Sequence record: MN106245.1
Source of the DNA: Klebsiella phage EI
Length of the DNA stretch: 64,000 nucleotides
Reading direction: 5' to 3' (one strand)
Below, piece by piece: positions 6,011 through 63,531 of the stretch. The stretch's first letter is position 1. Every line of letters starts with the position of its first letter. The notes beneath the pieces were generated by a model. It did no database searches, was not told where the DNA came from, and saw only the letters and a program-made list of their open reading frames with translations. The position numbers were made by a program, and so were the translations under genes.

Positions 6011-6052
6011 GTTGGTAGGAACATAGTATCATGCTCCTACCTGGATGTAAAC
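6011..6052 (-). promoter_or_regulatory. early promoter/stem-loop cassette (PeSL-like) P1: -35 GTTTACA, -10 GATACT, flanking IR GGTAGGAACAT/ATGCTCCTACC
   Basis: Minus-strand GTTTACA at 6047-6053; inverted repeat brackets -10. Confidence 0.55.
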
Positions 6053-6429
6053 TACTTAATAATATTTTTCACGGCGGAACGCGGAACCACGGAGTAATCA
6101 CCGTCGTGAACTACGTTCAGCAGTTCAACGCCATCTTCAACCCACTGGTCTGTAACCCAACCGCATACGCGGATGAATGGGGTTTCGATTTGAACTGTTT
6201 TACACAGAAGATCGTCACGGATATCGTAGTCATCATCATCGAGAGCCACGGTCCCAATCACTGATACATATTCAGGCGATACATAGCCAACGACCCCGTT
6301 AGAAGAAATAACGTATTCTTTAATTTCGCCAAGCCAACCAAAACGAACGGCCTCTATAACACCGGATTTACCGGCGATACGGGAACGGGACTGAGTGGAT
6401 ACATAGACCAGAGAGTCAATAGGGATCAT
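6052..6429 (-). CDS. hypothetical protein, 125 aa
   Basis: ORF track. Confidence 0.45.
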   Translation of the reverse strand: MIPIDSLVYVSTQSRSRIAGKSGVIEAVRFGWLGEIKEYVISSNGVVGYVSPEYVSVIGTVALDDDDYDIRDDLLCKTVQIETPFIRVCGWVTDQWVEDGVELLNVVHDGDYSVVPRSAVKNIIK

Positions 6430-6608
6430 TTTATTTCCTTAGCGAATACAGTTAGAAAGTTCAATACCGGTGTCAACACCAAAATTATAACCAGCTTCCC
6501 AACCTTTCGCCATAGTTGCTTTAACAACTAAAACCATACTTGGGGAGATTTCAGGAAGAATGGTCGAGTTAAACCATTCTTCAAAGTTTTCATCATACTC
6601 AAAATCGT

Positions 6609-7292
6609 TCATCGTGTTTTACTCAATGAGAGTGGATCGGCTTCAGCTTCAGACGGACATTCATCCAGACCAAGAGCATAACGTTGTGCATATTTTAACA
6701 TCAAAATATCTTTAGCACAATCATGAAGACTGTCATGAGCTACGAAGCCTTTTAGAGTACCGTTAGGCAGAGGAGTTGTGGTCATACCGCGTACCATACT
6801 GTATGCTTCAATAGCAGTACGGATATCACGCTGATTCCAGAACTTGACAGGCTCAAGCTTAAAGGTATCGATTTCATTTTCAGGAATGCCTTCAGAACGA
6901 TACAATTCACGAATCATATCTGTGAAAATAGGAATATCGAAGCTCATTCCACGGCACCACATCTGGCTGTTCCATGGATCTACACCTTGTTCTCGAATCC
7001 AATCCAGGACAATCTTAATGCCTTCGATAACTGTTTTATCTTCGTCAGATGGGATTAAGTTCTTACGGGCTTCTGGAGATTGGTCCTTCCACCAAGCTAA
7101 AGTTGACTTAGAGAATAATCTAGCCCCTTTCTGTGAGGTGAGATCGAATTTAACCCGCAGGCCTTTAGAGATAAGTTCATCTAAAGATTGAACCACTTCA
7201 GGGTCTGGGTTATAGGCAATTAAACTCAGGTCAATTGCCGCAGAGTTAGAAGTTGTAGCAAATGTTTCGTAGTCGATAATAATATCAATCAT
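6609..7292 (-). CDS. dexA: exonuclease A (DnaQ-like 3'-5' DNA exonuclease), 227 aa
   Basis: MIDIIIDYETF.. Exo motif; identical length to T4 DexA; position upstream of dda. Confidence 0.8.
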   Translation of the reverse strand: MIDIIIDYETFATTSNSAAIDLSLIAYNPDPEVVQSLDELISKGLRVKFDLTSQKGARLFSKSTLAWWKDQSPEARKNLIPSDEDKTVIEGIKIVLDWIREQGVDPWNSQMWCRGMSFDIPIFTDMIRELYRSEGIPENEIDTFKLEPVKFWNQRDIRTAIEAYSMVRGMTTTPLPNGTLKGFVAHDSLHDCAKDILMLKYAQRYALGLDECPSEAEADPLSLSKTR

Positions 7293-7510
7293 AGTTTACC
7301 TTCATAAGCAATTGTTGACATAACTTCAACTAAACTGCTCGGAATAATGATGTCTGGAGTTGCTCCTAGATAAGATGCAACACTAATAGCATTTTCACAA
7401 ATGCAACGAACCTTATACATTGCTTCAGCTTGATGAGGCATCATGGTTTCATGGCGAGTGTCATAAGATTCAATTAATTTGTTAGCTGTGTATTCGTTAA
7501 TACGTAACAT
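7289..7510 (-). CDS. hypothetical protein, 73 aa
   Basis: ORF track, ATGA overlap with dexA. Confidence 0.4.
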   Translation of the reverse strand: MLRINEYTANKLIESYDTRHETMMPHQAEAMYKVRCICENAISVASYLGATPDIIIPSSLVEVMSTIAYEGKL

Positions 7511-7517
7511 AGTTCAC

Positions 7518-9151: not shown

Positions 9152-9891
9152 TACATTTTACCTTTAATTAATTGAAGCAGTGAACAATTCAATGGCAATC
9201 CTTTTTCCAACTTCTTAGTATCCAACCAGTTACGTTTTTCTAAACGTTTAAGAGCTTCAACAATTATACCATAATTACGAACCTGTTCCTCTGCTTTAGA
9301 GAGCTTAGTAGCGTTCTTAATGCTACGGCCGTCACGAAGAGCGAATAGGGTAGCTTCTTGCCGGCCAATCTCAGCCTTAGCGCCTTCAATTCTGGCTCTG
9401 AGAGAAGCTATCATTACCTTACGGGCTTCGTCAAGATATCCTTCAGAGAGAATAGAATTCAGAGCTGCAATACGACCTTCGCGGCGGCTTTTTATGCCTT
9501 CTATATTTTTCTCAATGAGCTTAATTTTAGCCTGAGTTTCTTCAGCCAATGTTACAGGCTTATTATCAGAACCACGGACTATGCGGGCCGATTTTTCTTT
9601 AGCAAGAGCTTCCATTTTCTCTATAGAATAATTGCCTCTAGCAGAGTTATATTTCTCTTTAACCGGAATAACATTGCCAATGACGTAGCCTTTGTCGTTA
9701 TCCCATCTTTCAAGAGTTAGTGAATCGAGACCTGTGCCTGAGAACTCTTCACCCGAGTAAGCACAGTGAGTCTGGGCTAATATATTAGCCAGGTATTCAA
9801 AGGTAAGGTTGAATTCTTTGCCTCTGGACTTAGCAGATTCAAAAGTTTTAGCCAGACGACGCGCTATGATAACTTGATTAGATGCTTGCAT
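9151..9891 (-). CDS. putative HNH_3-like (degenerate His-Me finger) endonuclease-domain protein with long C-terminal coiled coil, 246 aa
   Basis: CAYSGEEF..LTLERWDNDKGYVIGNVIPV..N motif typical of phage HNH_3-type domains; ATG 9891 with GAGGA SD (track start 9930 lies inside promoter cassette). Confidence 0.4.
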   Translation of the reverse strand: MQASNQVIIARRLAKTFESAKSRGKEFNLTFEYLANILAQTHCAYSGEEFSGTGLDSLTLERWDNDKGYVIGNVIPVKEKYNSARGNYSIEKMEALAKEKSARIVRGSDNKPVTLAEETQAKIKLIEKNIEGIKSRREGRIAALNSILSEGYLDEARKVMIASLRARIEGAKAEIGRQEATLFALRDGRSIKNATKLSKAEEQVRNYGIIVEALKRLEKRNWLDTKKLEKGLPLNCSLLQLIKGKM

Positions 9892-9910
9892 GATTTTATC
9901 CTCAATATTG

Positions 9911-9950
9911 GTGTAGAAGTATAGTAACACGCTCCTACACCACTGTAAAC
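9911..9950 (-). promoter_or_regulatory. early promoter/stem-loop cassette P2 (GTTTACA.. IR GTGTAGAAG/CTCCTACAC)
   Basis: GTTTAC revcomp at 9945-9950; IR brackets -10 TATACT. Confidence 0.55.
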
Positions 9951-10141: not shown

Positions 10142-10209
10142 TTTGAACCCCTATTTGCTTTAGAATTTTTAACGGTATAATGGTTTCATGGATCTTTGGC
10201 TTCAGGCTA

Positions 10210-10812
10210 TTACCAGCTGATAAGTTCCAGATGAAGAATAGTATAATCCGTCGTGTTTGTATCTGGATTAGATTTATCTTCAATACGTAATATGCGGTAC
10301 GCTGCTTCCTTCGGAAGCATAAACTCGCACTCACCTTGAACCATATCTAACTTATCCTCGCGTTGATCTTCAGTTGACACCAAACCCATGTACTCTTCAT
10401 CAGGAGCACCAAGAAGAATATTAGTGATATCTTCTTGATAATTGTATGCCCACGGGCAGTTCTGTATGCTCAGAATCAGATTTGAATCATAATGCCATTT
10501 AGAAGCAAACTGCTTGGCAGTGGAGAAATCGGAGCTGAAGCTTGTAACACGTCCTAAAGTAAATGTATCACCTTCAGCTAGATTATAAAGTTTTTGCGCT
10601 TCAATCAGTGTCACCCCACGATACAATTCTGATGGTACCGTAGTAGACATGTGCTTACGTACTATTGGGTTCAGCCTGGAATGAATAAGTTCTTCATTCT
10701 TATCATTCAAACAAAGCCACAGAGTACTTTGCTCCATATCTGTGAATTTTTCTTCCACTTTAGACTGGATACTTTGACGAACTTTTTCTTCTGAACTGAT
10801 TTGGATAAGCAT
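10210..10812 (-). CDS. modA: ModA/ModB-like mono-ADP-ribosyltransferase, 200 aa
   Basis: R-S-ExE signature: ELYRG (Arg), SFSSDF (S-x-S), QGECEF (E-x-E); same length as T4 ModA; correct locus between dda and soc. Confidence 0.65.
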   Translation of the reverse strand: MLIQISSEEKVRQSIQSKVEEKFTDMEQSTLWLCLNDKNEELIHSRLNPIVRKHMSTTVPSELYRGVTLIEAQKLYNLAEGDTFTLGRVTSFSSDFSTAKQFASKWHYDSNLILSIQNCPWAYNYQEDITNILLGAPDEEYMGLVSTEDQREDKLDMVQGECEFMLPKEAAYRILRIEDKSNPDTNTTDYTILHLELISW

Positions 10813-10834
10813 GTTAGTATCTCCTGTTTGATGT

Positions 10835-10870
10835 AAAGAGATACTAACACGTTAAAAAGAGGATGTAAAC
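10835..10870 (-). promoter_or_regulatory. early promoter P3 (-35 GTTTACA, extended -10 TGtTAGTAT) upstream of modA
   Basis: GTTTAC revcomp at 10865-10870; different IR (TAGTATCTC/GAGATACTA) nearby. Confidence 0.5.
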
Positions 10871-10879
10871 ACCTTGGAT

Positions 10880-11068
10880 TTATTTCCAAGGTGCCCATGG
10901 CGGAGGGTCACGATAATATGAAGCCAGCTCTAACAAGGCGGCGGGAGGGAGATTTATTCCGTGTTTCTGTATGATCATATCAAGTTCGTTAATCAAGTCC
11001 TCAGGCGGCGATACAGGCTCTTGAGCGGCGGCCTCGAACATTTCAAACAGATCCATTACATAAACCAC
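10880..11068 (-). CDS. hypothetical protein, 62 aa
   Basis: ORF track. Confidence 0.3.
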   Translation of the reverse strand: MVYVMDLFEMFEAAAQEPVSPPEDLINELDMIIQKHGINLPPAALLELASYYRDPPPWAPWK

Positions 11069-12534: not shown

Positions 12535-12572
12535 TTCCTCATGTTGTTTTAAGTATTCTACCTACTCTACTA

Positions 12573-12603
12573 AAAGCAAAAAAGGACTCCCGAAGGAGTC
12601 CTT
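12573..12603 (-). terminator. rho-independent terminator downstream of soc (AAGGACTCC-ttcg-GGAGTCCTT + TTTTTTGCTTTT)
   Basis: 9-bp stem, tetraloop, U-tract on minus strand. Confidence 0.7.
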
Positions 12604-13640: not shown

Positions 13641-13644
13641 ATAC

Positions 13645-14397
13645 TCACTTCTTTTTAGCGTTTTCGAAGAATTCTTCAGTCAAACGCCGGTTTTCTTTTT
13701 CTTTTTCTAACCGAGCTTCTTCTTTCTTAAAGAGAACTTTACATGCATCTCGGAAAGAAGCCTCATCTTCTGGGGTTTCAACAAACACTGTATTCATGTT
13801 TGCTAAACCTATTACAACGGCTTCTTTGTTTGCATCAAGCCAAGCAACGTCTTTCATAGGAGCTGTGCGGTAAACTTCAGATTCGATCTGTTTAAATTGA
13901 TCATAAGCCATTTTTACGTTACAACGATCTAAATAAGCATCGCCAAACTTTTCTAAAACTTCTAAAGAAACTCTGTATCCGTCAGCTTCAATATAGCCTT
14001 TGGCGACGTGTTCTTTTAAGTTGTCTACTACGGATTTAGGCTTAGGCTTAGTTTCTTTAACTTCTTTCATTGGCTCTTTAGGCCCTTTATCCACTACAGT
14101 GTATGCGTACTTTTCATTATTGGCAAGTTCTTCTATACGAGAAGCATACACGTAAGCTAGGCCTTCCACGCTAGTTTGCTTGTTTCTGACGTTTTTAATC
14201 CAAGCCCGCTGGTCTTCAACGGGCTTTTCTTCGATTGCACTATAAACCTTGTTAAGGCTCGAATCCAGCTCAGAAACTAACGCATCCGAACAAATCAGCT
14301 TTTCTACTTTAGACGAAGCTTTAGAGCAATCAAACGAAGCAGCTTGGGCCGAAAAAGAAGCAATGGTTAAAGCAACTGCAGTTAAGATAATTTTCAT
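13645..14397 (-). CDS. secreted/periplasmic protein with LprI/DUF1311-like N-domain (lysozyme-inhibitor fold), 250 aa
   Basis: Signal peptide MKIILTAVALTIASFSAQA; CSKASS.VEKLICSD.L..LD..LN.VY....QRAWIKNVRNKQ pattern typical of LprI domain. Confidence 0.5.
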   Translation of the reverse strand: MKIILTAVALTIASFSAQAASFDCSKASSKVEKLICSDALVSELDSSLNKVYSAIEEKPVEDQRAWIKNVRNKQTSVEGLAYVYASRIEELANNEKYAYTVVDKGPKEPMKEVKETKPKPKSVVDNLKEHVAKGYIEADGYRVSLEVLEKFGDAYLDRCNVKMAYDQFKQIESEVYRTAPMKDVAWLDANKEAVVIGLANMNTVFVETPEDEASFRDACKVLFKKEEARLEKEKENRRLTEEFFENAKKK

Positions 14398-14414
14398 GAG
14401 GGTCTTCTCCTTTA

Positions 14415-14459
14415 GTGTGTAAGAGCAGCACTATATCATGCTCTTACAACGCTGTAAAC
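14415..14459 (-). promoter_or_regulatory. early promoter/stem-loop cassette P4 (IR GTGTAAGAGCA/TGCTCTTACAAC)
   Basis: GTTTAC revcomp 14454-14459; IR brackets -10. Confidence 0.55.
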
Positions 14460-14462
14460 TGT

Positions 14463-14744
14463 TTATTGGACGAACCCTAAGTTTTTAGAGATTTCTCGGT
14501 ACCGAGCCATTTTATCTACCTTAGCCCTCGTAGCATATGCATCTTCTGTGAACCTGAAATCAGTTTCTAAGGTCAAATTTAGAACAGCCCCTAGAATATC
14601 ATTGAGTTCTTCAGTCAGACGTTCTCTGTTGGTCTTACCGGCATATTCAGAGTCGAAGCCGAACTGCATAATCTTAGAGCAAATCTGAGCTACTTCATTG
14701 CACTCTTCTGATAGCTTAAGAAGAGCGTGTTGTGTACTATTCAT
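14463..14744 (-). CDS. hypothetical protein, 93 aa; possible small MazG/HisE-like NTP pyrophosphohydrolase
   Basis: LSEECNEV..ERLTEELNDILGAVLNL resembles MazG-like helix pair (weak). Confidence 0.35.
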   Translation of the reverse strand: MNSTQHALLKLSEECNEVAQICSKIMQFGFDSEYAGKTNRERLTEELNDILGAVLNLTLETDFRFTEDAYATRAKVDKMARYREISKNLGFVQ

Positions 14745-16783: not shown

Positions 16784-17158
16784 TTATTCTACATCTAAAA
16801 GAGGTACGTCTGCACGAGAGTCCCGATCAAGGTTTCCGTCCTGGTCTGCCCACCATCCACAGACACGAACTTCAGAGTTCTCGTGTTTATACAGCTGCCG
16901 AACAAACACAGCTTTAGATTTCCCTTTTACTTTAACAGGAAAACCGTAGCGAATTTCTGGGCGGGTAAGATAATGGTAAGCACACTCGTACCCATCTAAC
17001 ACAAAGCCATTAGCCGAAAGACCTAAATTAATGAAAGCTCTTCCATTATACTTTTCTAAGTACTTGTTAGGAACTTTTTCTTGTTCACTAACATTATAAA
17101 GCCCGCCTTTTACTAAAGTAGCATCTTTATACCCAGGATAAGAATTTTCGTAGTTCAT
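16784..17158 (-). CDS. hypothetical protein, 124 aa
   Basis: ORF track; promoter cassette P5 upstream. Confidence 0.45.
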   Translation of the reverse strand: MNYENSYPGYKDATLVKGGLYNVSEQEKVPNKYLEKYNGRAFINLGLSANGFVLDGYECAYHYLTRPEIRYGFPVKVKGKSKAVFVRQLYKHENSEVRVCGWWADQDGNLDRDSRADVPLLDVE

Positions 17159-17177
17159 GTCAGTTCCTCACTTTGTT

Positions 17178-17218
17178 TGTGTAGAAGCATAGTATCATGC
17201 TCCTACACAGATGTAAAC
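17178..17218 (-). promoter_or_regulatory. early promoter/stem-loop cassette P5 (IR GTGTAGAAGCAT/ATGCTCCTACAC)
   Basis: minus: GTTTACA-tctg-TGTAGGAGCATG-ATACTAT-GCTTCTACAC. Confidence 0.6.
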
Positions 17219-20244: not shown

Positions 20245-20514
20245 TTAAATCTTTAAACTTGTTTGCTTTGCCTGCTCTTCAGCGATAAGAGCATCCATCT
20301 TAGCGTCGTGTTCTCGCTTCATAGCCATTGCTTCTTCATGGTCACTAGAGTAGTGAACTTGGTTAGAGTTTGCATTACGGACATAGCCTATATTGTTGCC
20401 GCCGACGGTAAAGATTGTACCAACATCAGAAAGACGGTATGTATTTCCGTCTTCATGTTGAGCACACCCATTAAGAGTTAATGCGGCCAGTACGAGAATT
20501 AATTTAAGTTTCAT
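20245..20514 (-). CDS. putative lipoprotein, 89 aa
   Basis: MKLKLILVLAALTLNGC lipobox; ATG 20514 with GGAGAA SD (track start 20547 inside promoter). Confidence 0.45.
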   Translation of the reverse strand: MKLKLILVLAALTLNGCAQHEDGNTYRLSDVGTIFTVGGNNIGYVRNANSNQVHYSSDHEEAMAMKREHDAKMDALIAEEQAKQTSLKI

Positions 20515-20527
20515 AGTTCTTCTCCAA

Positions 20528-20580
20528 GTGTAGGAACACTTTAACACATTCCTACACTATTGTAAACCGCACGGTTTACA
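20528..20580 (-). promoter_or_regulatory. early promoter/stem-loop cassette P6 plus palindromic -35 (GTAAACCGcACGGTTTAC)
   Basis: IR GTGTAGGAACA/CATTCCTACAC; GTTTAC present on both strands. Confidence 0.5.
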
Positions 20581-38575: not shown

Positions 38576-38583
38576 TTCTTAAA

Positions 38584-39382: not shown

Positions 39383-39400
39383 ATTGTATCTCCGTTGTTA

Positions 39401-39440: not shown

Positions 39441-39443
39441 ACC

Positions 39444-44012: not shown

Positions 44013-44285
44013 TCAGAATATTTTACGAATTAAAGCTAACAGTGGCAGTCCTGCAATAGCTACTACCCAGAACACAGCAAAGATAGGCCAGAAAGTTACA
44101 ATCCATGCTATCTCAGTGTCTTCAGTGACGTCATCATAGATACCAGTCCAACCTGATGTAGCGATGAACAACTTCGTCATCAGGATTCCTATCATAACAT
44201 AGCAGAATACACAAAGTAAACCAAATAAAATTTCCATTCTTTTTTCACCGAGTATAGAGTGTAATGGAATCATCCATGAAACCAT
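44013..44285 (-). CDS. membrane protein, 90 aa
   Basis: Two+ TM helices. Confidence 0.4.
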   Translation of the reverse strand: MVSWMIPLHSILGEKRMEILFGLLCVFCYVMIGILMTKLFIATSGWTGIYDDVTEDTEIAWIVTFWPIFAVFWVVAIAGLPLLALIRKIF

Positions 44286-44296
44286 TATACCGACAT

Positions 44297-44961: not shown

Positions 44962-45734
44962 CAGATTTTAACCTTAGTTGGTCGTTTGAAGAATGCGTGA
45001 GTTTTATCATCACGAGCCTGTTCGAATGTAGCACTGAATTCGATTTCACCACGATGGTCCAGTGGTACACATTTCGGCAATGTTCCGTAGACAGTAGATT
45101 TGTTTTCTAACACTACAGTCATCTTAGAAACAATACCATAGTAATCTTCGAAGGTCTTAACAGATACAACACGTCCTTTTACTACCTGTTTGCCCACAGG
45201 AGCTTCGCCTTTGTCCTGTTTCATACTCTCGAATAGGTTATTAAACCATTCATTAGAGTATTCCTGGATCGCTTTCAGGATGTCCTGGTGAGCTCGTACT
45301 TTAACCATTAGAACTTCGGTATTCGTCTGTTCCATAGTCCAACGCTTATAAGGAATTTGGAACTGGATACCGTAGATATCGAAGATCTCGTCGTACATTT
45401 CTTGTGTTAAACGAAGCTTCCACCATCCGTGGTCACCTGTATACTCAGGTTTATCCATGTTATCAAGTTCAGTAACATATGGGAGATAACTCCCGGCATG
45501 ATAAGCTTCTACTTCACCCAGTTCGTTTTCCCACAGATATCCGTCAAATGGAGCATGCGGACGGTCATCGACTCCCCAGGTAGGTGCAACTACTTTATCG
45601 AATCCGTCACGTCCGAAACGGGACTTGCACCATCCAGCATTCAACTCCTCGGCGCGTTTTTCAACTTTCGCTCGGTGTGCTTGGCGGGCTTTACGATTTT
45701 CTTCAATAATTTTCATTACGATTTCGTTTAACAT
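44961..45734 (-). CDS. hypothetical protein, 257 aa
   Basis: ORF track; GGAGAT SD; promoter P8 upstream. Confidence 0.5.
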   Translation of the reverse strand: MLNEIVMKIIEENRKARQAHRAKVEKRAEELNAGWCKSRFGRDGFDKVVAPTWGVDDRPHAPFDGYLWENELGEVEAYHAGSYLPYVTELDNMDKPEYTGDHGWWKLRLTQEMYDEIFDIYGIQFQIPYKRWTMEQTNTEVLMVKVRAHQDILKAIQEYSNEWFNNLFESMKQDKGEAPVGKQVVKGRVVSVKTFEDYYGIVSKMTVVLENKSTVYGTLPKCVPLDHRGEIEFSATFEQARDDKTHAFFKRPTKVKI

Positions 45735-45749
45735 TTTTGCATCTCCGTG

Positions 45750-45792
45750 TTGGTGTAAGATGATAGTATCACCATCCTACACCGTTGTAAAC
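45750..45792 (-). promoter_or_regulatory. early promoter/stem-loop cassette P8
   Basis: GTTTAC revcomp 45787-45792; IR GGTGTAAGATGAT/ATCACCATCCTACACC. Confidence 0.5.
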
Positions 45793-47120: not shown

Positions 47121-47296
47121 AAGTTCCTCACATAAATGTAAAGTCTGATTCCTGGAGTGTGTAGCAACGCCCTGTGGCTTTTTCAAGAAAAGTGTAATAC
47201 ATTACACCTTCTACCTCACGTTGTTCCTGGAGCACACCTATAATCTTATTAGGGCCAAAGCACCACATAATAGCTTTCATATTTACCTCTTTAGTT

Positions 47297-47334
47297 GTGT
47301 AGGTCTATAATATCATGACATACGAGGATGTAAA
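47297..47334 (-). promoter_or_regulatory. early promoter P9 (GTTTACA -35, TATTAT -10)
   Basis: GTTTAC revcomp 47329-47334. Confidence 0.5.
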
Positions 47335-47340
47335 CACCTA

Positions 47341-47368
47341 AACGAAAAAAGGCTCCCGAAGGAGCCTT
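47341..47368 (-). terminator. rho-independent terminator (AAGGCTCC-ttcg-GGAGCCTT + TTTTTTCG)
   Basis: 8-bp stem, U-tract on minus strand, right after stop of 47373..47633. Confidence 0.7.
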
Positions 47369-47372: not shown

Positions 47373-47633
47373 TTATTTGAAAGGACGAGGACCTTTCGGC
47401 AGATGCTTTTTGATTTGGCTCTCAGCTAAATTAGCCGGAATAGAAATTAGCCAACCGATAGCGTGGTAGAAGCCAGACCAGATAACAATAGGAAGCCAGA
47501 ACAGAACGTACGTCCACCACCCTAAAGAAGATTCGATGTAGTCAGTAGCAACCATCTTGTTAGCAATGATGAACCCAACTACAAAGTACGCAATAGCAAT
47601 CACGATAGGCATAGCAATCCAAAATAAGCTCAT
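47373..47633 (-). CDS. membrane protein, 86 aa
   Basis: Three hydrophobic segments. Confidence 0.45.
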   Translation of the reverse strand: MSLFWIAMPIVIAIAYFVVGFIIANKMVATDYIESSLGWWTYVLFWLPIVIWSGFYHAIGWLISIPANLAESQIKKHLPKGPRPFK

Positions 47634-47646
47634 AATATTTCCTCTT

Positions 47647-47691
47647 GTGTGGTAGAAGATTATACTACCACACGTTAAAAGCTTTGTAAAC
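47647..47691 (-). promoter_or_regulatory. early promoter/stem-loop cassette P10 (perfect IR GTGTGGTAG/CTACCACAC around TATAAT)
   Basis: GTTTAC revcomp 47686-47691. Confidence 0.55.
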
Positions 47692-49887: not shown

Positions 49888-50139
49888 TTATTTGTCCATA
49901 GTTGGAATAACAGAATTCAGATAAGCAACAAGTGCCTGAGCTTCAGCTTTAGTAAAGGTGACCCAGTTAAGTTCATCTTCCTTTTCATCAAACTGCTTTA
50001 CATGAATGACGTCGCAGTTAAGTTCTGCAAAATTAGAAGTAGGAAATACCGACAGATCTGTGTCGGATTCACCGGGAAAGTCTGATTCAATTTTAGCCGC
50101 AGAAGATGATGTTGGGTACTGCCACTTTAGTAAACTCAT
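49888..50139 (-). CDS. hypothetical acidic protein, 83 aa (start refined)
   Basis: ATG 50139 with GAGGAAAA SD. Confidence 0.4.
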   Translation of the reverse strand: MSLLKWQYPTSSSAAKIESDFPGESDTDLSVFPTSNFAELNCDVIHVKQFDEKEDELNWVTFTKAEAQALVAYLNSVIPTMDK

Positions 50140-50159
50140 TTTGTTTTCCTCGTTTGTTT

Positions 50160-50199
50160 GTGTAGGAATACTATACCACAACATTACCAGCTTGTAAAC
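50160..50199 (-). promoter_or_regulatory. early promoter P11
   Basis: GTTTAC revcomp 50194-50199, -10 TATAGTAT. Confidence 0.45.
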
Positions 50200-50932: not shown

Positions 50933-51186
50933 TCAGCGATTTCTTTAGCAACACGTTCAGCTTCACCATCGGCTAGCCAACTGAACTCATCTTCAATAAG
51001 AGTAGTTTTCTCTTCTACCGAAGCAGAAGTTTCTACCCAGAATCCGAACGACGCATTAACTGAAAAATCTTCAGTGCAGATGCCGACTTCATCGATAGCT
51101 GGGATGAACTTAAAGTTAAGAGTCAACGGTCTGCCGTCTTTGTGAAGCACTTTCATTTCGCCATACTTACGGAATGTGTTAATCAT
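50920..51186 (-). CDS. hypothetical protein, 88 aa
   Basis: ORF track; promoter P12 upstream. Confidence 0.4.
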   Translation of the reverse strand: MINTFRKYGEMKVLHKDGRPLTLNFKFIPAIDEVGICTEDFSVNASFGFWVETSASVEEKTTLIEDEFSWLADGEAERVAKEIAEWVL

Positions 51187-51204
51187 AATATTCTCCTCAT
51201 GTTT

Positions 51205-51244
51205 GTGTAAGGATATACTAACATGTCCTACTACCGTTGTAAAC
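51205..51244 (-). promoter_or_regulatory. early promoter/stem-loop cassette P12 (IR GTAAGGA/TCCTAC)
   Basis: GTTTAC revcomp 51239-51244. Confidence 0.5.
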
Positions 51245-51248
51245 CCCT

Positions 51249-51272
51249 AAAGGGACCAAAAAGGTCCCCTTA
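51249..51272 (-). terminator. hairpin AGGGGACC-ttttt-GGTCCCT
   Basis: Downstream of 51277..51663. Confidence 0.4.
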
Positions 51273-54756: not shown

Positions 54757-55215
54757 TTAGAGATTAATAACGTATGTGCTGATCTTACCTTTTAAACGTT
54801 TATTGTTAACAAAAGCCATTCGGCATTTCAATGAATACCAACGACCTGGAATATGGTTATCCACAGTCATACCCAGCCATAAGGTGCCATCAGTGACTTC
54901 AAGTCTCTGAGGACGATACACCACATCAGGATCGATATCAGCAGTATCTATAGGCAGAGGTGGTAATTTCAAGAATTCTGAGATCTCTTCGACATGAAGA
55001 TGAATCTTTTTGAAGAGGGCGAATACATACTCTTCATCGATATCGCGTTGGATAGCACGGTCCAACAGATGATTAGAGTATTTAATAAAGAAAGGTTGAA
55101 TTCCAGCCTTGATAGCGGCAGACTTCACAGAAGAATTGATATCTCTGAAAGTAGTTTCAAAGACACGACGGAGCTTATTGCGGCGGATGAAAACGCTTGG
55201 ATCGATGTTAGTCAT
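54757..55215 (-). CDS. regB: RegB endoribonuclease, 152 aa
   Basis: VFIRRNKLRR.FE..FR.IN..YS.HLLDRAIQR.IDE.YVF.LF.KI.. matches recalled T4 RegB. Confidence 0.8.
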   Translation of the reverse strand: MTNIDPSVFIRRNKLRRVFETTFRDINSSVKSAAIKAGIQPFFIKYSNHLLDRAIQRDIDEEYVFALFKKIHLHVEEISEFLKLPPLPIDTADIDPDVVYRPQRLEVTDGTLWLGMTVDNHIPGRWYSLKCRMAFVNNKRLKGKISTYVINL

Positions 55216-55234
55216 TTTAATTTCCTCTCATTTT

Positions 55235-55275
55235 GGTGTAGAAGTACTATACCATACTCCTACACACTTGTAAAC
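55235..55275 (-). promoter_or_regulatory. early promoter/stem-loop cassette P13 (IR GTGTAGAAGTA/TACTCCTACAC) upstream of regB
   Basis: GTTTAC revcomp 55270-55275. Confidence 0.55.
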
Positions 55276-56587: not shown

Positions 56588-56887
56588 TTATAGAGAACCG
56601 CGACCTTTAATTGTATTCATTCGACCTTTAGCTTGAAGTTCAGCATCATCTAATTCGAATGCACCCATAACACCCCAAGCCTTTTTAATTTTAGCCAAAG
56701 AGCCTTTAGATACAACGATATTAAAAGTGTTGCCTTTAGTAAAATCAACGAAATCTACTTCTACACCCTGTTTAGTGATGCTTGACACAATAGCATCGAC
56801 GTAGTCTTTGTCTAAATTTCCTTGAGCAGCAATTTGAAAAACCTTTGGGGCTTTTGCTTCAGTGATAAATTCTTTATAAGTTTTCAT
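56588..56887 (-). CDS. internal-protein-like capsid-targeted protein (IPI-like), 99 aa
   Basis: N-terminal capsid targeting sequence [11 protein letters not shown] shared with the two other IP genes (T4 IPs: MKTYQEFIAEA); start refined to ATG 56887. Confidence 0.55.
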   Translation of the reverse strand: MKTYKEFITEAKAPKVFQIAAQGNLDKDYVDAIVSSITKQGVEVDFVDFTKGNTFNIVVSKGSLAKIKKAWGVMGAFELDDAELQAKGRMNTIKGRGSL

Positions 56888-57078
56888 TTTATATCCTAGG
56901 ATGGTAAGATTTAAATTAAATGGGGCCATTCCTTGGCACATGTTTAATCCATCGACACACTATGTAAACCCCTTACCGCACTTGCGCTCGACCTTATTAC
57001 AGGTAGGGAAAGCTACTTCACTCAGAGGACTCGACGTTCATGAGGAGAGGTCGTGTTCAGCTTTATTAGGAATTAGTT

Positions 57079-57651
57079 TTAATTACGGGCTGCATTAGCA
57101 ACGGCGTAAGCGTACTGAATATTAGCGTCTTTAAACGTACCTTTAGTGGTATCTAGATCTGCCTTAAACCCGCCTTTAGCCATAACCTCGGCGAATTCTT
57201 TACGGAAAGCCATTGCATCAAGACCTTTCCATGCTGATTTGTGTTTGGCGAATTCAAGACCGGCAAAGTTGACGGCCTTAGCCAATTTATTGTCAATAAC
57301 CCATTTACCAGCTTTAGGCACAAACACCGGGCCTTTCTGTTTGGAGAACAATTTTAAATTCCAGCGGCGAAGGTCTGCATCGGCTTTAACAAAAGCTGAG
57401 TCCAAGTTACTAGCAACAACATCTTGAATATGGGCAAATTTAAGTCCGCCAGCTTCAATATTTAGATCGTTACGCCAGCGAAGTCCTTCCCAAGCGAAGC
57501 TTTTAAAGTCAGAAGCCTTTGTAGCTAAATATCGTTCAATAGGAGCTGTTTTAGGGTCAAAGCCGTTTCCTCGGTAGGTCCACTCATCTTTATTAATGCC
57601 ATTGACCTTTCCTGCAGAAGCTTCAGTGATAAATTCTTTATATGTTTTCAT
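57079..57651 (-). CDS. ipIII: internal protein III-like, 190 aa
   Basis: [15 protein letters not shown]; length ~T4 IPIII; start refined to 57651 (AAAGGA SD). Confidence 0.6.
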   Translation of the reverse strand: MKTYKEFITEASAGKVNGINKDEWTYRGNGFDPKTAPIERYLATKASDFKSFAWEGLRWRNDLNIEAGGLKFAHIQDVVASNLDSAFVKADADLRRWNLKLFSKQKGPVFVPKAGKWVIDNKLAKAVNFAGLEFAKHKSAWKGLDAMAFRKEFAEVMAKGGFKADLDTTKGTFKDANIQYAYAVANAARN

Positions 57652-57695
57652 TTTATATCCTTTAAGTTGATAGAAGCATTCTATCAAAGCTTATC

Positions 57696-58103
57696 TTAGT
57701 TGTAAATAGCCTTACCATAATGTTTATACCACTGAGGCCTTTGTGCAATTTTTTCATCCAAACGAGCCTGACTTAAAGCGATGTCAGCTTCAGATGGAGT
57801 AAAATCATTCATTAAACATAGCGGGATATCCGATACGTCAACATGGGTATTTTGAATCTGGAACCCGCGCTTTAAAAGTTCCTCAATAATAGCATTTTGC
57901 CGCAAGAACAAAAAGCCAATTTTATCGTAGAAGAACTTAACATGACCTGCGCCGAGGCGGAAGTCTTTAGGAATATCGCTGAAGCCTTGTCCTTTAGCCA
58001 AACGATCACGAACAGCACCGAAAATGCGTGGCAGTTCACGATACTCAGCCATCAGGTGTTGATCAGCGAGTTCAGAAACAAGAGTTAAGTTAATACGTGT
58101 CAT
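57696..58103 (-). CDS. denV: endonuclease V (pyrimidine-dimer DNA glycosylase/AP lyase) DenV, 135 aa
   Basis: [31 protein letters not shown].. and ..[21 protein letters not shown] near-identical to recalled T4 DenV. Confidence 0.85.
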
Positions 58104-58104
58104 A

Positions 58105-58133
58105 GTAGCCTCCATTAAGTTTGTAAGGCTACT
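58105..58133 (-). promoter_or_regulatory. hairpin AGTAGCCT(13-nt loop)AGGCTACT overlapping denV Shine-Dalgarno
   Basis: 8-bp perfect IR; SD GGAGG partly in 3' arm (mRNA sense). Confidence 0.35.
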
Positions 58134-58161
58134 ATATCACAGCTATCGTAAAAGTAAATTG

Positions 58162-58464
58162 TTATTTACCTTTAATTGCTTTAGCTGCTTCGATAGCCGC
58201 TTGCTGAAGGTCATCCATAGACATACCGAACTTAGAAGCAAAGTTATCAATTTTCTTTTCGACAGAATTCAAAGGCTTGGCCTGTTTACCTTCATTAGCG
58301 CCAGGGAGAGCGAGAATACGCTCTTTGTCAATATAAAGGCTTACAAGTTTCTTACGGTCTTTATCGGGCAAATCATTAAATGAATGGGCCTTTTTATTTA
58401 CGGCGGCTTCTAATTTACCCGCACTTACTCGCGCTTCGGCGATAAATTCTTTATAGGTTTTCAT
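58162..58464 (-). CDS. ipII: internal protein II-like, 100 aa
   Basis: [29 protein letters not shown].. CTS; same length as T4 IPII. Confidence 0.6.
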
Positions 58465-58945
58465 ATGCTTTCCAAGTTCCTGTTTTAAATGTCGAAATAA
58501 CCCGTTTAGCTCTGTTAGGAGTCTGATTATACCACCTAGATTTGGCTAAATTAATTGCTGCATCGTCCCAACGTTTCTCTTTAAGCATACGCAAAGAATT
58601 GGTGAACCCTGCGACGCCAGTAACGCCCATTTGGAAGACCATATTAATTAATGCCGCTTTACGTACAGCATCAAGAGATTCATATACAGGCTTCAGAACT
58701 GGGTTGCCTAAGATACCACGGGTGGCTTTGTCTACTGAATTCAAGAACAATTTCTCTGCTTCAGCACGAGTGATAACGCCATTACACTTACGGCCAATTA
58801 GTTTATCAAGCTCAGCTTTAGCAACATTAATATCAGGGCTCTTGGTTAAGAGCTGGCCAATACCGATTGTGTAATAACCTTCAGTGTCTTTATAAATTTT
58901 GTTGTCGTATCCTTCATCGATACGAAGCATGTCAAAAATGTCCAT
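58451..58945 (-). CDS. e: lysozyme (endolysin) e, 164 aa
   Basis: [30 protein letters not shown] (catalytic E11, D20, T26) ~75% identical to recalled T4 lysozyme. Confidence 0.9.
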
Positions 58946-60432: not shown

Positions 60433-61115
60433 CCTTCCATAGGGAACTCAAGATAAACCTGAGCATTCACTCGGATTTCGTTCGTAATTTTCTTAACGCG
60501 GTCAGTATTGCGGGAGACTCGTCCGAACCAGCGCCAGCCGTTAAGAACCGCTTTAGAACCAGTGTGCCAGGTATCATGGTTGAATTGAAGAAGTGTACGG
60601 TCCGGAGCTTCCCATTGCTTAAGTGTACCTTCTTCGATGTGACGTAAGACTTCTGGATGCAAGTGTTTGTAGACCGTAGCACCTTCAGGAACTTCAGAAA
60701 ACTCAGCCACACCAGTAGCAAAATGAGTGGGACAAATATAGGCATTAGCAAGACCAATAATATGCTCGGCACGATAGCGAGGGTTGTCATAATCAGGTTG
60801 ACCCGCAGTTAAGAAATGTTGACCGGCCGGAATATCAGGACGCGGTACGTCATCGTGGTGATAACCTGGAATAGCAGGATACCAGCCAGGCATCAGCATG
60901 TGGATACGAGTGTCAATTACTAAATCAGGTCCGCACTGCCAATCTTCTGGAAGGTTTTCAATAAAGCTACGAGTGATAGGACCGCCATGTTTCCAGGCAA
61001 AATACACATCACAGTTAAAGAACATTGTTTCATTTTTGATCACTTCGTTGGAAATACCCATAGCGAAACGACCTACATCTTTGGCTTGGCTGTTAAAAGT
61101 TTTTGGACCGTTCAT
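60426..61115 (-). CDS. hypothetical protein, ~229 aa (start refined to MNGPKTF..)
   Basis: Track ORF start 61199 lies inside promoter cassette P14; ATG 61115. Confidence 0.45.
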   Translation of the reverse strand: MNGPKTFNSQAKDVGRFAMGISNEVIKNETMFFNCDVYFAWKHGGPITRSFIENLPEDWQCGPDLVIDTRIHMLMPGWYPAIPGYHHDDVPRPDIPAGQHFLTAGQPDYDNPRYRAEHIIGLANAYICPTHFATGVAEFSEVPEGATVYKHLHPEVLRHIEEGTLKQWEAPDRTLLQFNHDTWHTGSKAVLNGWRWFGRVSRNTDRVKKITNEIRVNAQVYLEFPMEGW

Positions 61116-61136
61116 AATATTTTTCTCTCTAGTGTG

Positions 61137-61177
61137 GGTGTAGGAGTATAGTAACACGTTCCTACAGCTGTGTAAAC
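61137..61177 (-). promoter_or_regulatory. early promoter/stem-loop cassette P14 (IR GTAGGAGTATA/CGTTCCTACAG)
   Basis: GTTTAC revcomp 61172-61177. Confidence 0.55.
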
Positions 61178-61702: not shown

Positions 61703-62665
61703 TCATTTCTGAAACGGCAGAATCAAATGCTCATTTTTGTGAAAGCGATCAATATAATCGTTCACACCCAGAGTTTTGTACATATGAACTACCTTATGGT
61801 AGTTCTCCCAAGCGTATTCACGGAACCAGCCTGAAGTAATCGACGTACACACTTTCTCAAGAGCCATCATGAAGGAATGCTCAGAACTTACATTCTGGAA
61901 GTTATTAGGGACCTGAGAACGCTCCAAGGCCAAGACACAGGTTTCTTCGTAAACGCCGGCCAGTTTAATAGCCTCTGGTAGCGACTCGAACTTCTCGCGA
62001 GAAGTCATGACTTCAGAGCCATCTTTCATGTAGAAAGTATAAGCGGGACGGTCTGCCAGAGCTACAGCCCGGTGGATGCTGTCATGGTCAAGCGTATAAA
62101 TGGTATCATTAAAGAACGTACTTTTGTTCACATCCAGCTTAGGATGGTTGTAGTTCAGAGTTTCTTTCTGACGAAGGAGCATAATCTCTTCCATAGCCAA
62201 AGAGAGTTTAACCCCTTTGTTACGCAAGAAGCGAATATGATGCATTGTTTTACGGAAGAATGGGTTATTCTTTTTGAAACGATGGCTCATTTTGATAGCC
62301 AAGCACATTTCTGGAGTAGCCCAGTAAAATCCAGAAATATTGTCCTTAGTGAGGAACTCTTCAGAATAACGTAAGAGTTCAAAGCTCGAAGTGAAATCCT
62401 CTGGTAGCATCTTATTAACTTCCTGGCGGATTCGAGTAATAGAAGGAACGATATATGCTTCAAAGTGAGTTTCACGGCCATTATGCATGCATTTGAATGC
62501 ACGTACATCAGGATTATTGACTGCTACTTCAATACCTAACATTTGGGCCTTAAAGGCATTCCAAGAACCTTGATCTGCGATGAAGTCCCAATCGCTGTTT
62601 TTGATGTCATCGTAACCGATAAGACCGTGGTGTTCAAGAGCGCGAGAACCGATAACTAGCATCAT
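61703..62665 (-). CDS. hypothetical protein, 320 aa
   Basis: ORF track; promoter P15 upstream. Confidence 0.5.
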   Translation of the reverse strand: MMLVIGSRALEHHGLIGYDDIKNSDWDFIADQGSWNAFKAQMLGIEVAVNNPDVRAFKCMHNGRETHFEAYIVPSITRIRQEVNKMLPEDFTSSFELLRYSEEFLTKDNISGFYWATPEMCLAIKMSHRFKKNNPFFRKTMHHIRFLRNKGVKLSLAMEEIMLLRQKETLNYNHPKLDVNKSTFFNDTIYTLDHDSIHRAVALADRPAYTFYMKDGSEVMTSREKFESLPEAIKLAGVYEETCVLALERSQVPNNFQNVSSEHSFMMALEKVCTSITSGWFREYAWENYHKVVHMYKTLGVNDYIDRFHKNEHLILPFQK

Positions 62666-63042
62666 AATATTTTCCTCAGTTGGTTTGTAGGAGCATTATA
62701 CTGATTTTTAAGGCGGTTGTAAACTCTTTTACGGCATAAAGCTAAAAACATTTCATGCTCTGAAGGAGGCTCTTTCCAACGCTGTTCTTCAAAGTCGTAG
62801 ATTAGAACGGGAAGAGATGTACCACGCAGAACAGGATACTGGTCATGCATATCGTATAGTAGTTTACGACCTATAGACATATGTTCTAAGGCTCTTGAAA
62901 TCTCTCCAGCCCAATTGAACAGATTCAGACATAGGTTGTGGTGCTTATCTCTTTCCCACCAATGGATATACCCGTTCTTATGGAACGGGGTTTGAGTTTC
63001 GATACAGTAATCAACAGTCAAGTGAGCTACTCTGCCAGCCAA
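62662..63042 (-). CDS. hypothetical protein, 126 aa (possibly continuous with 63011..63208 via frameshift)
   Basis: ORF track; 32-nt out-of-frame overlap with upstream 65-aa ORF. Confidence 0.35.
   Translation of the reverse strand: MAGRVAHLTVDYCIETQTPFHKNGYIHWWERDKHHNLCLNLFNWAGEISRALEHMSIGRKLLYDMHDQYPVLRGTSLPVLIYDFEEQRWKEPPSEHEMFLALCRKRVYNRLKNQYNAPTNQLRKIL
62684..62723 (-). promoter_or_regulatory. early promoter cassette P15 (within 3' end of upstream ORF)
   Basis: GTTTAC revcomp 62718-62723; GTAGGAGCATTATACT. Confidence 0.45.
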
Positions 63043-63208
63043 GGATTGAAATATTATTGTAGCCTACTTGAACAGCGCTATGAATATTCAGGCCACTTCG
63101 GTCGTCGAAGTAAATATCGACATTTTCATTTTCTTCTGCACAAAGCTGGAACAGATTTTCCAGAGCAGCTTTGGCAATGCGTACAGCACAATCTAATTCA
63201 CGAGACAT
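63011..63208 (-). CDS. hypothetical protein, 65 aa
   Basis: ORF track. Confidence 0.3.
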   Translation of the reverse strand: MSRELDCAVRIAKAALENLFQLCAEENENVDIYFDDRSGLNIHSAVQVGYNNISILGWQSSSLDC

Positions 63209-63482
63209 GTTTACCTCTGCAATATTTGATGAAGCGGTTAATTTCAGCTTCAGTGATTTGTTGGTTTTCTACTATGATCCATTCACCGTCAATGAATTTA
63301 GCATCAGGATAAGTGAATCCATCTAATTCTTGGATAAGCTTTTCATAAAGATATGCGGCCGCTTTTACCTTTTCACGAACAGTGTACTGGGTGTACAGCA
63401 TATGCAAATACGCTACAGAACAAGTGCTTTCGAAGCCATGTTCATTTTGGTAATGCAAATAGCAATTTTTAACGAAAATCAT
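63198..63482 (-). CDS. hypothetical protein, 94 aa (start refined; AGGAGGA SD)
   Basis: ATG 63482; track start 63503 inside promoter. Confidence 0.45.
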   Translation of the reverse strand: MIFVKNCYLHYQNEHGFESTCSVAYLHMLYTQYTVREKVKAAAYLYEKLIQELDGFTYPDAKFIDGEWIIVENQQITEAEINRFIKYCRGKHVS

Positions 63483-63491
63483 TGTTCCTCC

Positions 63492-63531
63492 TGTAAGGGT
63501 CACTATAACATGACCCTTAGTGAATGTAAAC
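63492..63531 (-). promoter_or_regulatory. early promoter/stem-loop cassette P16 (perfect IR TAAGGGTCA/TGACCCTTA around TATAGT)
   Basis: GTTTAC revcomp 63526-63531. Confidence 0.55.

Follow-up and report, generated by a model that had tools for sequence, protein, structure and literature searches.

A previous study described in phages RB49 and phi1 about 50 cassettes per genome, each combining a strong σ70-like early promoter with a stem-loop, a Shine–Dalgarno (SD) sequence and a start codon (Arbiol et al. 2010, PMC2839356), and these promoter-early-stem-loop (PeSL) cassettes are the closest described relatives of the element treated here, a family of minus-strand cassettes in a 64,000-nucleotide stretch of Klebsiella phage EI (MN106245.1), hereafter the window. 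In RB49 and phi1 the stems lie mostly between the promoter boxes or over the –10 box, a stem overlapping the –10 being one of the five subclasses recognized; in a reporter, one RB49 stem matched rrnB T1 in terminating transcription, one cassette was shown to promote, and gene shuffling mediated by PeSLs through mini-circles was proposed (PMC2839356). A later study extended PeSLs to the T4/PST and KVP40/nt-1 phages, with group-specific stems and, in T4/PST, a promoter of the form TTTACW-N17-TAYWAT (Comeau et al. 2014, PMC4122927). Neither of these two studies mentions translation, SD sequestration or Klebsiella phages; in the collection of literature searched, the term PeSL occurs in no Klebsiella-phage paper, the papers pairing Marfavirus with "promoter" do not describe these cassettes, and a transcriptome of this phage was looked for there and not found. 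The early promoters of T4 have been reviewed as UP/–35/TGn/–10 promoters (Hinton review, PMC2988021). Additionally, in the T4 genes e, soc, 49 and I-TevI the translation initiation region (TIR) is buried in long transcripts, and a late promoter located inside the hairpin gives a translatable RNA (PMC3014915).

An 8-kb piece of the window was 99% identical over its full length to Klebsiella phage vB_KpnM_Potts1 (Potts1) and 91–98% identical to other Marfavirus genomes, so that the window is by its similarity a Marfavirus, a T4-like phage. According to the Potts1 and Marfa annotations, it covers the early and replication region of such a phage, with all genes on the minus strand of the window, including regB, tk, denV, the internal proteins, lysozyme, gp55, gp46/47, gp45, gp44/62 and regA, as well as the genes for DNA polymerase, uvsX, gp41, gp61, dda and an ADP-ribosyltransferase.

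Twenty cassettes were found in the window, named below by the window position of the first –35 base on the minus strand. The explanation preferred here, to which a probability of about 60% is assigned, is that each of them would be a T4-type σ70 early promoter (–35 GTTTACA and –10 TAnnnT, separated by 17 nt that close with TGn) driving the next minus-strand gene, and that the untranscribed part of the promoter would encode the 5′ strand of an RNA hairpin, which could then fold solely in RNA coming from an upstream promoter. Transcription would begin at the A of a conserved CCTACAC; every start site given in this report is a predicted one, set by assumption about 7 nt past the –10. Three designs are distinguished. 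In class A, the spacer would pair with the discriminator/+1 region, leaving the –10 in the loop, and the hairpin, which lies about 12 nt past the upstream stop codon, may mark the end of the upstream unit through attenuation or 3′-end protection, besides keeping the anti-SD-like discriminator CUCCU off the SD of the next gene. In class B, the downstream gene would supply its leader and SD as the partner of the spacer, and in class C its SD-to-AUG stretch as the partner of the –10 and discriminator. In both of these classes the gene would be translatable only from transcripts begun at its own early promoter, which would place the logic of T4 e, soc, 49 and I-TevI on early promoters. The cassettes would thereby insulate early units and, in classes B and C, make translation specific to the promoter of origin; the early timing and any effect on termination, RNA stability or translation are predictions from sequence and folding.

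Number, motif and position of the cassettes

The original prediction had listed 16 sites with a –35 GTTTACA and a –10 TAnTAT, and all 16 were recovered as a minus-strand GTTTACA followed after 16–17 nt by TAnnnT. The –35 held as described; however, the –10 was not strictly TAnTAT, its real form being TAnnnT, which occurs as TACTAT, TAGTAT, TATAGT, TATAAT, TATTAT and TAAAGT. The pattern GTTTACA-N17-TAnnnT matched 16 times, in every case on the minus (gene) strand, against 0.29 ± 0.52 expected from 100 shuffles, and GTTTACA alone gave 27 matches against 11.6 expected, with 21 of the 27 on the minus strand. Relaxation of the –35 added members 41081, 57707 and 58159, and a member with a degraded –35 at 38584 brought the total to 20. 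An unsupervised repeat finder supplied with no motif also returned the cassette as its top direct-repeat families (D1–D3), with a unit of 57 nt running from the SD through the –35.

For comparison, cassettes were collected from Marfa, pzk-kv8 and Enterobacter phage CIP9 (45–48 kb per locus). The 90 distinct cassettes of this phage and its relatives had the consensus GTTTACA-AC-N-cATGnTAnnAT-GnTCCTACAC-nAACAA, with an extended –10 TG in nearly all copies (T22/G23 at least 90% conserved). The features of a T4-type early promoter, namely –35 GTTTAC, TGn and –10 TAnnnT, were therefore present, and by motif the cassettes are T4-type early promoters. On the other hand, no AT-rich or UP-like tract was found, the 30 nt upstream of the –35 averaging 59.5% A+T against 59.6% in the window. 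A generic σ70 scan gave 54 hits in total against 48.8 in shuffles, without excess, so that only the specific T4-type motif was informative, and an Rfam scan of both strands of the whole window returned no match at the gathering threshold.

On the 3′ side of all 20 copies lie an SD and a start codon, 13–34 nt past the predicted start site, and the –35 is usually abutted or overlapped by the stop codon of the upstream gene, as in TAGTTTACA. The strand bias extended to the relatives, with 18 minus-strand against 0–1 plus-strand cassettes per locus and all of the unique cassettes (127/127) on the gene strand. Fourteen of the 20 copies lie in the accessory-gene stretch at 38.5–64 kb, six at 6–21 kb and none in the replication core at 21–38 kb. 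The original prediction had placed cassettes in nearly every intergenic gap preceding small accessory genes, which overstates their frequency, because about 17 of some 40–45 gaps of at least 40 nt hold one, an approximate count made on a rough gene tiling. Others contain intrinsic terminators or MotA-box-like middle promoters.

Compared with the PeSLs of RB49/phi1, the cassettes share an intergenic early promoter with a stable stem, SD and start codon, the presence of tens of copies co-oriented with the genes, a stem that often lies over the –10, G-T pairs in the stems and copies beside some differential genes. They differ in their promoter, which is GTTTACA/TAnnnT with TGn here and near-perfect TTGACA/TATAAT there, in their arms, which are GTGTAGGAG/CTCCTACAC-like here and Gn/Cn there, in the absence of an AT-rich upstream tract, in that many copies here pair with the downstream ribosome-binding site (RBS), and in being known from sequence alone. 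With the T4/PST PeSLs they share the TTTACW-N17-TAYWAT consensus, degraded "half" copies and copies near some insertions or deletions (indels) between close relatives; however, the T4/PST stems are drawn just upstream of the promoter (AGNA-loop-TCNT), whereas here they span the –10 or reach the SD. The label of PeSL-like early-promoter/stem-loop cassettes used in the original prediction is thus appropriate, given the promoter anatomy, the SD and start codon in all copies and a –10-overlapping stem that is a published subclass. By these sequence features the cassettes belong to the published PeSL class, and what is new is the 20-member list, the covariation, the stems predicted only in read-through RNA and the two putative SD-sequestering designs, which compensatory changes preserve across the Tevenvirinae, T4 among them.

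Three half cassettes, consisting of a minus-strand GTTTACA with no usable –10, were observed at 4643, 56969 and 61692. The CIP9 orthologue of 56969 retains an intact –10, and 61692 is followed by a hairpin CCTGCCC/GGGCAGG that is terminator-like on the plus strand. Seven MotA-box-like middle promoters were noted on the minus strand. Additionally, a 40-nt inverted pair, 85% identical, lies at 10154-10193 (plus strand) and 44272-44311 (minus strand), each copy carrying a MotA-box-like TGCTTTA-N13-TATAAT followed by GGTTTCATGGAT; the copy at 10156 is directed antisense into the ADP-ribosyltransferase-like gene 10210-10812.

Stems around the –10 box

For class A, the spacer, the –10 and the next 16 nt were folded, and a hairpin was regarded as strong at a free energy of –10 kcal/mol or below. 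A strong hairpin was found in 10 of the 19 folded copies, with the –10 in the loop in all ten. The earlier statement that an inverted repeat brackets the –10 in most of the 16 sites held for ten of them (6052, 9950, 14459, 17218, 20567, 45792, 47691, 55275, 61177 and 63531); in the other six (10870, 39440, 47335, 50199, 51244 and 62724) this stem was weak or absent. In four further copies a hairpin was found either at the –35 or upstream of it. The copies described as using different arms were confirmed, being GTGTGGTAG/CTACCACAC in 47691 and TAAGGGTCA/TGACCCTTA in 63531. The copies with a stem at the –10, followed by two with a weak stem or without a significant one, are as follows (ORF, open reading frame; aa, amino acids; free energies are those of the stems).

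5989-6052, minus strand: cassette 6052, class A; –35 6052-6046, –10 6028-6023, SD GAGGA, ATG 5991, 73-aa ORF; stem GGTAGGAGCATG/TATGTTCCTACC, whose loop contains the –10, –18.3 kcal/mol
9889-9950, minus strand: cassette 9950, class A; –10 9926-9921, ATG 9891, 246-aa ORF; stem GGTGTAGGAG/CTTCTACACC, –16.4 kcal/mol
14395-14459, minus strand: cassette 14459, class A; arms TGTAAGAGC/GCTCTTACA, –13.8 kcal/mol; ATG 14397, 250-aa ORF
17156-17218, minus strand: cassette 17218, class A; ATG 17158, 124-aa ORF; 14-pair stem TGTGTAGGAGCATG/TATGCTTCTACACA, –19.9 kcal/mol
20512-20580, minus strand: cassette 20567, class A, –14.3 kcal/mol; ATG 20514; second hairpin TGTAAACC-gtgc-GGTTTACA, whose 3′ arm is the –35
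38509-38584, minus strand: degraded member 38584; –35 ATTTAAG, –10 TATAAT 38560-38555, stem GAGGAC/GTCCTC kept; ATG 38511
45732-45792, minus strand: cassette 45792, class A, –19.7 kcal/mol; ATG 45734, 257-aa ORF
47631-47691, minus strand: cassette 47691, class A in a shifted register; arms GTGTGGTAG/CTACCACAC, the 5′ arm taking in the first –10 bases, –14.2 kcal/mol; conserved in Marfa and pzk-kv8
55213-55275, minus strand: cassette 55275, class A, upstream of regB, –16.2 kcal/mol; ATG 55215
57649-57707, minus strand: cassette 57707; –35 ATTTACA; stem TGATAGAA/TTCTATCA with the –10 inside the 5′ arm, –8.6 kcal/mol; ATG 57651, internal-protein-like gene
61113-61177, minus strand: cassette 61177, class A, –10.2 kcal/mol; ATG 61115, 229-aa ORF
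63480-63531, minus strand: cassette 63531, class A with divergent arms TAAGGGTCA/TGACCCTTA, –15.8 kcal/mol; SD 2 nt past the stem, ATG 63482
50137-50199, minus strand: cassette 50199 without a significant hairpin; overlaps the 3′ end of the upstream ORF
51184-51271, minus strand: cassette 51244 with a weak stem; terminator-like hairpin AAGGGGACC-ttttt-GGTCCCTTT upstream (about 51249-51271)

The complementarity of the arms was copy-specific, with a mean of –9.99 for arms of the same copy against –6.55 ± 0.62 for permuted pairs, about 3.4 kcal/mol being lost and none of 2000 permutations being as good. When the 90 distinct cassettes were placed in a common register, 129 cells were changed on both sides against 88.5 ± 7.2 in shuffles, and the covariation score was 0.251 against 0.185 ± 0.008 in shuffles (0/500) and 0.11–0.15 in slid registers. 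Arms in the relatives differ yet stay complementary, as in GATAGGAAG/CTTCCTATC, GTCTGTAGGA/TCCTACAGAC, GAGGAC/GTCCTC and GGGTGTCTTA/TAAGATACCC; the Marfa orthologue of 63531 has arms CTAGGGCCA/TGGCCCTTA, the CIP9 orthologue of 45792 retains its stem via compensatory inner changes, and in Marfa, pzk-kv8 and CIP9 the degraded 38584 has orthologues whose GTTTACT/ATTTACA is intact and whose stem is identical. Both the copy-specific arms and the covariation in relatives bear out the earlier proposal that structure, and not sequence, is under selection. Since almost all copies, those without a 5′ arm included, share the conserved 3′ arm nCYTACAC, it is the spacer that adapts to the conserved discriminator/+1 region.

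That conservation could also be read in another way, the cassettes being merely strong promoters whose stems are by-products of the consensus (TGnTAnnAT, CCTACAC) and of the shared ancestry of the copies. The 3′ arm CCTACAC is indeed kept in copies without a 5′ arm, and the inner three class A pairs (aTG with the nAT of the –10; pairs 21–23) follow from the promoter consensus. However, this explanation is contradicted by the mix-and-match and shuffle controls, which preserve the consensus and were exceeded in every trial; moreover, arms that depart from the consensus are still complementary and the class B and C stems presented below stand 20-fold over a permutation null, which leaves it hardly any probability.

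The level at which the stem acts was addressed by a strand-symmetric search, in which G·T mismatches on the sense strand outnumbered A·C mismatches (24 vs. 10, p = 0.024) and, under symmetric selection, sense folds were more stable than antisense folds (65 vs. 26). These findings lend modest support to the stem acting in the sense-strand RNA. The competing possibility is a DNA-level element, in which the inverted repeat at –12/–11 would be an operator for a dimeric phage shutoff protein, or a cruciform that affects promoter opening or is cut by endonuclease VII. It would account for the palindrome axis, whose position in the majority of class A copies is precisely the upstream boundary of the –10 (register i+j = 37), and the mechanism of T4 early-promoter shutoff has been stated as unknown (PMC2988021, PMC3014915). 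However, the arms differ widely while remaining complementary (GATAGGAAG, GTCTGTAGGA, GAGGAC, GGGTGTCTTA, TAAGGGTCA), and this variation between copies excludes a single sequence-specific binder. Additionally, about 40% of the promoters have no 5′ arm, the excess of G·T over A·C is on the sense strand, and the class B and C arms, which covary just as strongly, are separated across the start by 25–45 nt, too great a distance for a cruciform. An element of this kind is accordingly considered very improbable.

Because the predicted start lies inside the 3′ arm, the cassette's own transcript cannot contain the class A stem, which would be formed only in read-through RNA. The class A hairpins resemble intrinsic terminators in being stable and located soon after a stop codon, and terminator hairpins do occur directly upstream of cassettes 47335 and 51244, the latter terminator-like. 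However, no class A stem has a U-tract or T-run, the sequence that follows the stems being A/C-rich, and none was called by the intrinsic-terminator scan, for which only the separate hairpin 47349-47368 qualified near the cassettes. Without a U-tract, they are not canonical terminators, and the stems are under clear selection and yet not terminator-like. Near-identical intrinsic terminators, GGACTCC/GGCTCC-ttcg-GGAG(T/C)CC followed by T6, were also observed at 12540-12600 and 47340-47368, both on the minus strand; a MotA-box-like promoter comes after the first and early cassette 47335 after the second.

Stems reaching the downstream ribosome-binding site

Beyond the –10 stems, the promoters of other copies pair with the RBS of the downstream gene, a pairing that the original prediction had missed. 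The copies of the window concerned are the following, where SD accessibility refers to predicted values.

10810-10891, minus strand: cassette 10870, class C; ATG 10812, 200-aa RNA-polymerase ADP-ribosylase-like gene (phrog_832); –10 and discriminator GTGTTAGTATCTCTT pair with SD-to-AUG AGGAGATACTAACAT, –20.3 kcal/mol; SD accessibility 0.06 in read-through RNA, 0.44 in own transcript
10872-10891, minus strand: hairpin CCTTGG..CCAAGG upstream of cassette 10870, abutting its –35
39380-39446, minus strand: cassette 39440, class C; GTG 39382, 85-aa ORF; CATGTTAGTATACTCC pairs with GGAGATACAATG; SD accessibility 0.01 in read-through RNA, 0.89 in own transcript; extra hairpin with the –35 in its loop
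41009-41081, minus strand: extra member 41081; spacer TCTGAATCA pairs with TGATTTAGA beside the SD; ATG 41011 of a pin-like protease-inhibitor gene
47278-47368, minus strand: cassette 47335, without a –10 stem; SD GAGG paired with the short spacer TCCTC; SD accessibility 0.01 in read-through RNA, 0.73 in own transcript; ATG 47280
47349-47368, minus strand: intrinsic terminator AAGGCTCC-ttcg-GGAGCCTT-TTTT upstream of cassette 47335
58101-58159, minus strand: cassette 58159, class C, –35 ATTTACT, upstream of denV (ATG 58103); TATAGTAGCCTT pairs with GGAGGCTACTATG, –19.4 kcal/mol; SD accessibility 0.10 in read-through RNA, 0.64 in own transcript
62663-62724, minus strand: cassette 62724, no stem (0.0 kcal/mol), –10 TATAAT; ATG 62665, 320-aa ORF; discriminator CUCCU predicted to pair with the SD, accessibility 0.03 in read-through RNA, 0.60 in own transcript

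These designs were surveyed in 148 unique cassettes with their leaders and in 74 orthologue clusters. In class B the stretch of spacer immediately 3′ of the –35 serves as an anti-SD for leader and SD (for example ATCTCCTTTTAGT/ACTAAAAGGAGAT, TTCTCCGGTGGTT/AACCACTGGAGAA and CTCCGTTTG/CAAACGGAG), and stems of at least 9 bp were found in 9.5% of the 148 cassettes against 0.6% with permuted spacers. In class C, of which 10870, 39440 and 58159 are the window examples, pairing is between the –10 with discriminator and the SD-to-AUG stretch, and stems scoring at least 10 were found in 10.8% against 0.5% after permutation. Both classes are therefore enriched about 20-fold over the permutation null, and one or another of classes A, B and C was present in 48 of the 74 clusters. 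Additionally, the duplex between promoter and TIR ranked in the top 5% relative to non-orthologous promoters in 12 of 43 non-A clusters, where about two were expected.

The predicted accessibility of the SD in read-through RNA and in the own transcript was 0.58 in both cases for class A, 0.13 and 0.52 for class B, and 0.23 and 0.62 for unclassified cassettes, in which half of the SD pairing mass falls on the discriminator CUCCU. For 10870, 39440 and 58159 the SD is predicted to be paired in read-through RNA, with accessibilities of 0.01–0.10. In the SD-pairing copies the predicted proximal start, 7 nt past the –10, lies between the two strands of the helix. This geometry may be like that of T4 e, soc, 49 and I-TevI, where the 5′ helix strand is also upstream of the proximal start, so that the helix would fold only in read-through RNA, and where, as predicted for 10870, 39440, 58159 and T4 regB and denV, SD and AUG are held within a helix of 11–16 bp. 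However, the internal promoter is an early σ70 promoter here and a late one (TATAAATA) there, and the predicted effect here is confinement to the immediate-early burst, not delay, in many genes as opposed to four.

The denV and regB genes allowed the design to be followed across phages. Upstream of denV, nearly all of 26 distinct T4-like phage sequences have a GTTTAC-type promoter together with a stem burying the SD, formed by class C arms (TATAGTAGCCTT, TATGATGTCTTCC, TAGTGTTCTC or TATAGTAGTCTTC) or class B arms (TCTCCTGTAG, TCCTCCAAGG or CTCCGTTTG) whose sequences vary and compensate between phages. In these 26 phages the minimum free energy was –18.9 with the own promoter against –11.3 with a swapped one (p = 3e-7), and the predicted TIR accessibility was 0.32 with the own promoter, 0.46 with a swapped one and 0.69 in the own transcript. 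The regB gene has class A in Marfavirus and class B (spacer–SD) in CIP9, the JS98-type phages and T4. In T4 itself (NC_000866, 62500-68500), where the known gene e hairpin was recovered as a control, the early-type promoter motif was found upstream of regB, denV, ipII and ipIII. The spacer pairs with the gene's own SD in regB (TTTCCTCTTGACTG/CAGTTAAGAGGAGA, –22.4 kcal/mol) and in denV (TCTCCTGTAG/CTACAGGAGA, –18.0 kcal/mol), and ipII has a class A stem of 14 bp with a –10-like box in the loop. In JS98-type coliphages a practically identical cassette, GTTTACA-TCTCCTGTAG...TACTAT...CTACAGGAGA, was observed before the unrelated genes denV and regB, which suggests duplication or conversion with the SD included.

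Several points weigh against the hairpins acting only in read-through RNA. Four window copies have no convincing stem of any kind, and the presence of a separate upstream hairpin in non-A cassettes is only a trend (30% vs. 8% of clusters, p = 0.085). The excess of G·U pairs comes for the most part from a single recurrent position, and orthologues do not count as independent observations. The accessibilities are thermodynamic predictions on short pieces of RNA, which take no account of folding during transcription or of ribosomes that terminate on the upstream gene. The role given to class A is a proposal drawn from the sequence, and regB, with class A in this phage and class B in others, speaks against a gene-specific need. 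Translational coupling, in which a ribosome terminating on the upstream gene would melt the 5′ arm, was considered as well and not adopted, because the arms begin about 7–10 nt past the stop codon, just beyond the reach of the ribosome as estimated here.

A tentative extension of the read-through-only hairpin, going beyond the PeSL papers and put forward as a possibility with less than even odds, is a general rule for Tevenvirinae, whereby the untranscribed half of the promoter would supply the 5′ strand of a helix and the identity of its partner would set how the next gene is read. With its own SD/AUG as partner, the gene would give a strict immediate-early pulse, its exposed GGAG then being open to RegB; with the anti-SD-like discriminator as partner, the SD would be free in all transcripts. 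If true, the gene e/soc paradigm, so far made up of four cases with late promoters, would take in dozens of early genes, T4 regB and denV among them. If the SD-pairing versions work as predicted, translation would be made dependent on the promoter of origin, and T4 regB/denV and the RegB system would be suited to testing this. It may also bear on the RegB resistance of some GGAG sites in longer transcripts and on the sharp shutoff of early expression in T4. The cassettes could also serve annotation, since sequence alone would delimit about 20 transcription units within 64 kb in a genus of Klebsiella phages that are therapeutic candidates.

Cassettes and genome rearrangements

The original prediction had also connected the cassettes with modular gene shuffling, which was examined through about 19 indel or replacement events between the window and Potts1, Marfa and pzk-kv8 (four genomes). 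About 6 of the 19 events do have a breakpoint within 35 nt of a cassette; however, about 4 would be expected at random gene junctions, of which some 15% carry a cassette, and the difference is not significant. Breakpoint 14484 is 25 nt upstream of the –35 of 14459, the 840-bp insert relative to Potts1 consisting of that cassette and its 250-aa ORF. Relative to Marfa, breakpoint 45824 is 32 nt upstream of the –35 of 45792, and 51204 is the 3′ edge of cassette 51244. A deletion breakpoint in pzk-kv8 falls at 57688, inside the spacer of 57707, and breakpoints 61127-61132, at cassette 61177, belong to two different rearrangements, one relative to Potts1 and one to pzk-kv8. No indel bounded by two cassettes was found among the four genomes, and the window-specific inserts 34925-35534, the largest and encoding an HNH homing endonuclease, and 37431-37680 are both without a cassette. 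The association of cassettes with indels is thus weakly supported, compatible with PeSL shuffling and not demonstrated by four genomes.

These data bear on the classical PeSL model taken in full, in which the stem would be a terminator or attenuator of upstream transcription and the cassettes would be recombination sites whose mini-circles drive modular shuffling. The anatomy is as published, including the –10-overlapping subclass, and one RB49 stem terminated like rrnB T1 (PMC2839356). Breakpoints lie near cassettes at 14484, 45824, 51204, 57688 and 61127-61132 (the last used twice), the JS98-type phages place one cassette before two unrelated genes, and the half cassettes 4643, 56969 and 61692 are degraded as in Comeau 2014 (PMC4122927). 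Additionally, copies without a –10 stem tend toward a separate upstream hairpin, twice with a T-run. However, the class A stems have no U-tract and are not called terminator-like, the indel count does not exceed expectation significantly, and the largest window-specific insertion carries no cassette. Excision as a mini-circle predicts two flanking cassettes, which no indel has, and the RBS pairing of the class B and C stems is left unexplained by a terminator. Considering both sides, the full model is regarded as unlikely.

Other differences between the genomes were also observed. The segment 4822-13642 is only 80–84% identical to Potts1, with flanks at 97–98%, which points to a mosaic with a recombinant segment inside one species. 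The right edge of this divergent block, 13642-14484, is also where cassette 14459 is inserted together with its ORF (13645-14397, minus strand, 250 aa), which is missing from Potts1, has its own cassette here, belongs to phrog_4675 and gives a weak Pfam match to LprI lysozyme inhibitor (E = 9e-5). A Pfam search of seven ORFs in the variable modules returned almost no matches. The 610-bp insertion 34925-35534 is absent in Potts1, Marfa and pzk-kv8 alike, and its breakpoints are the same whichever of the three is compared; the 205-aa HNH homing endonuclease (34908-35525, minus strand; phrog_10820, E = 2.7e-81, no Pfam match) adjoins the gp46/47-like recombination nuclease genes. Finally, a 57-nt repeat spanning the RBS and N-terminal codons (MKTYKEFI...) is common to three genes, at 56841-56897, 57605-57661 and 58418-58474, and pzk-kv8 is without two of the three. 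This repeat, which we take to resemble the capsid-targeting leader of the T4 internal proteins, would make the locus a variable internal-protein locus.

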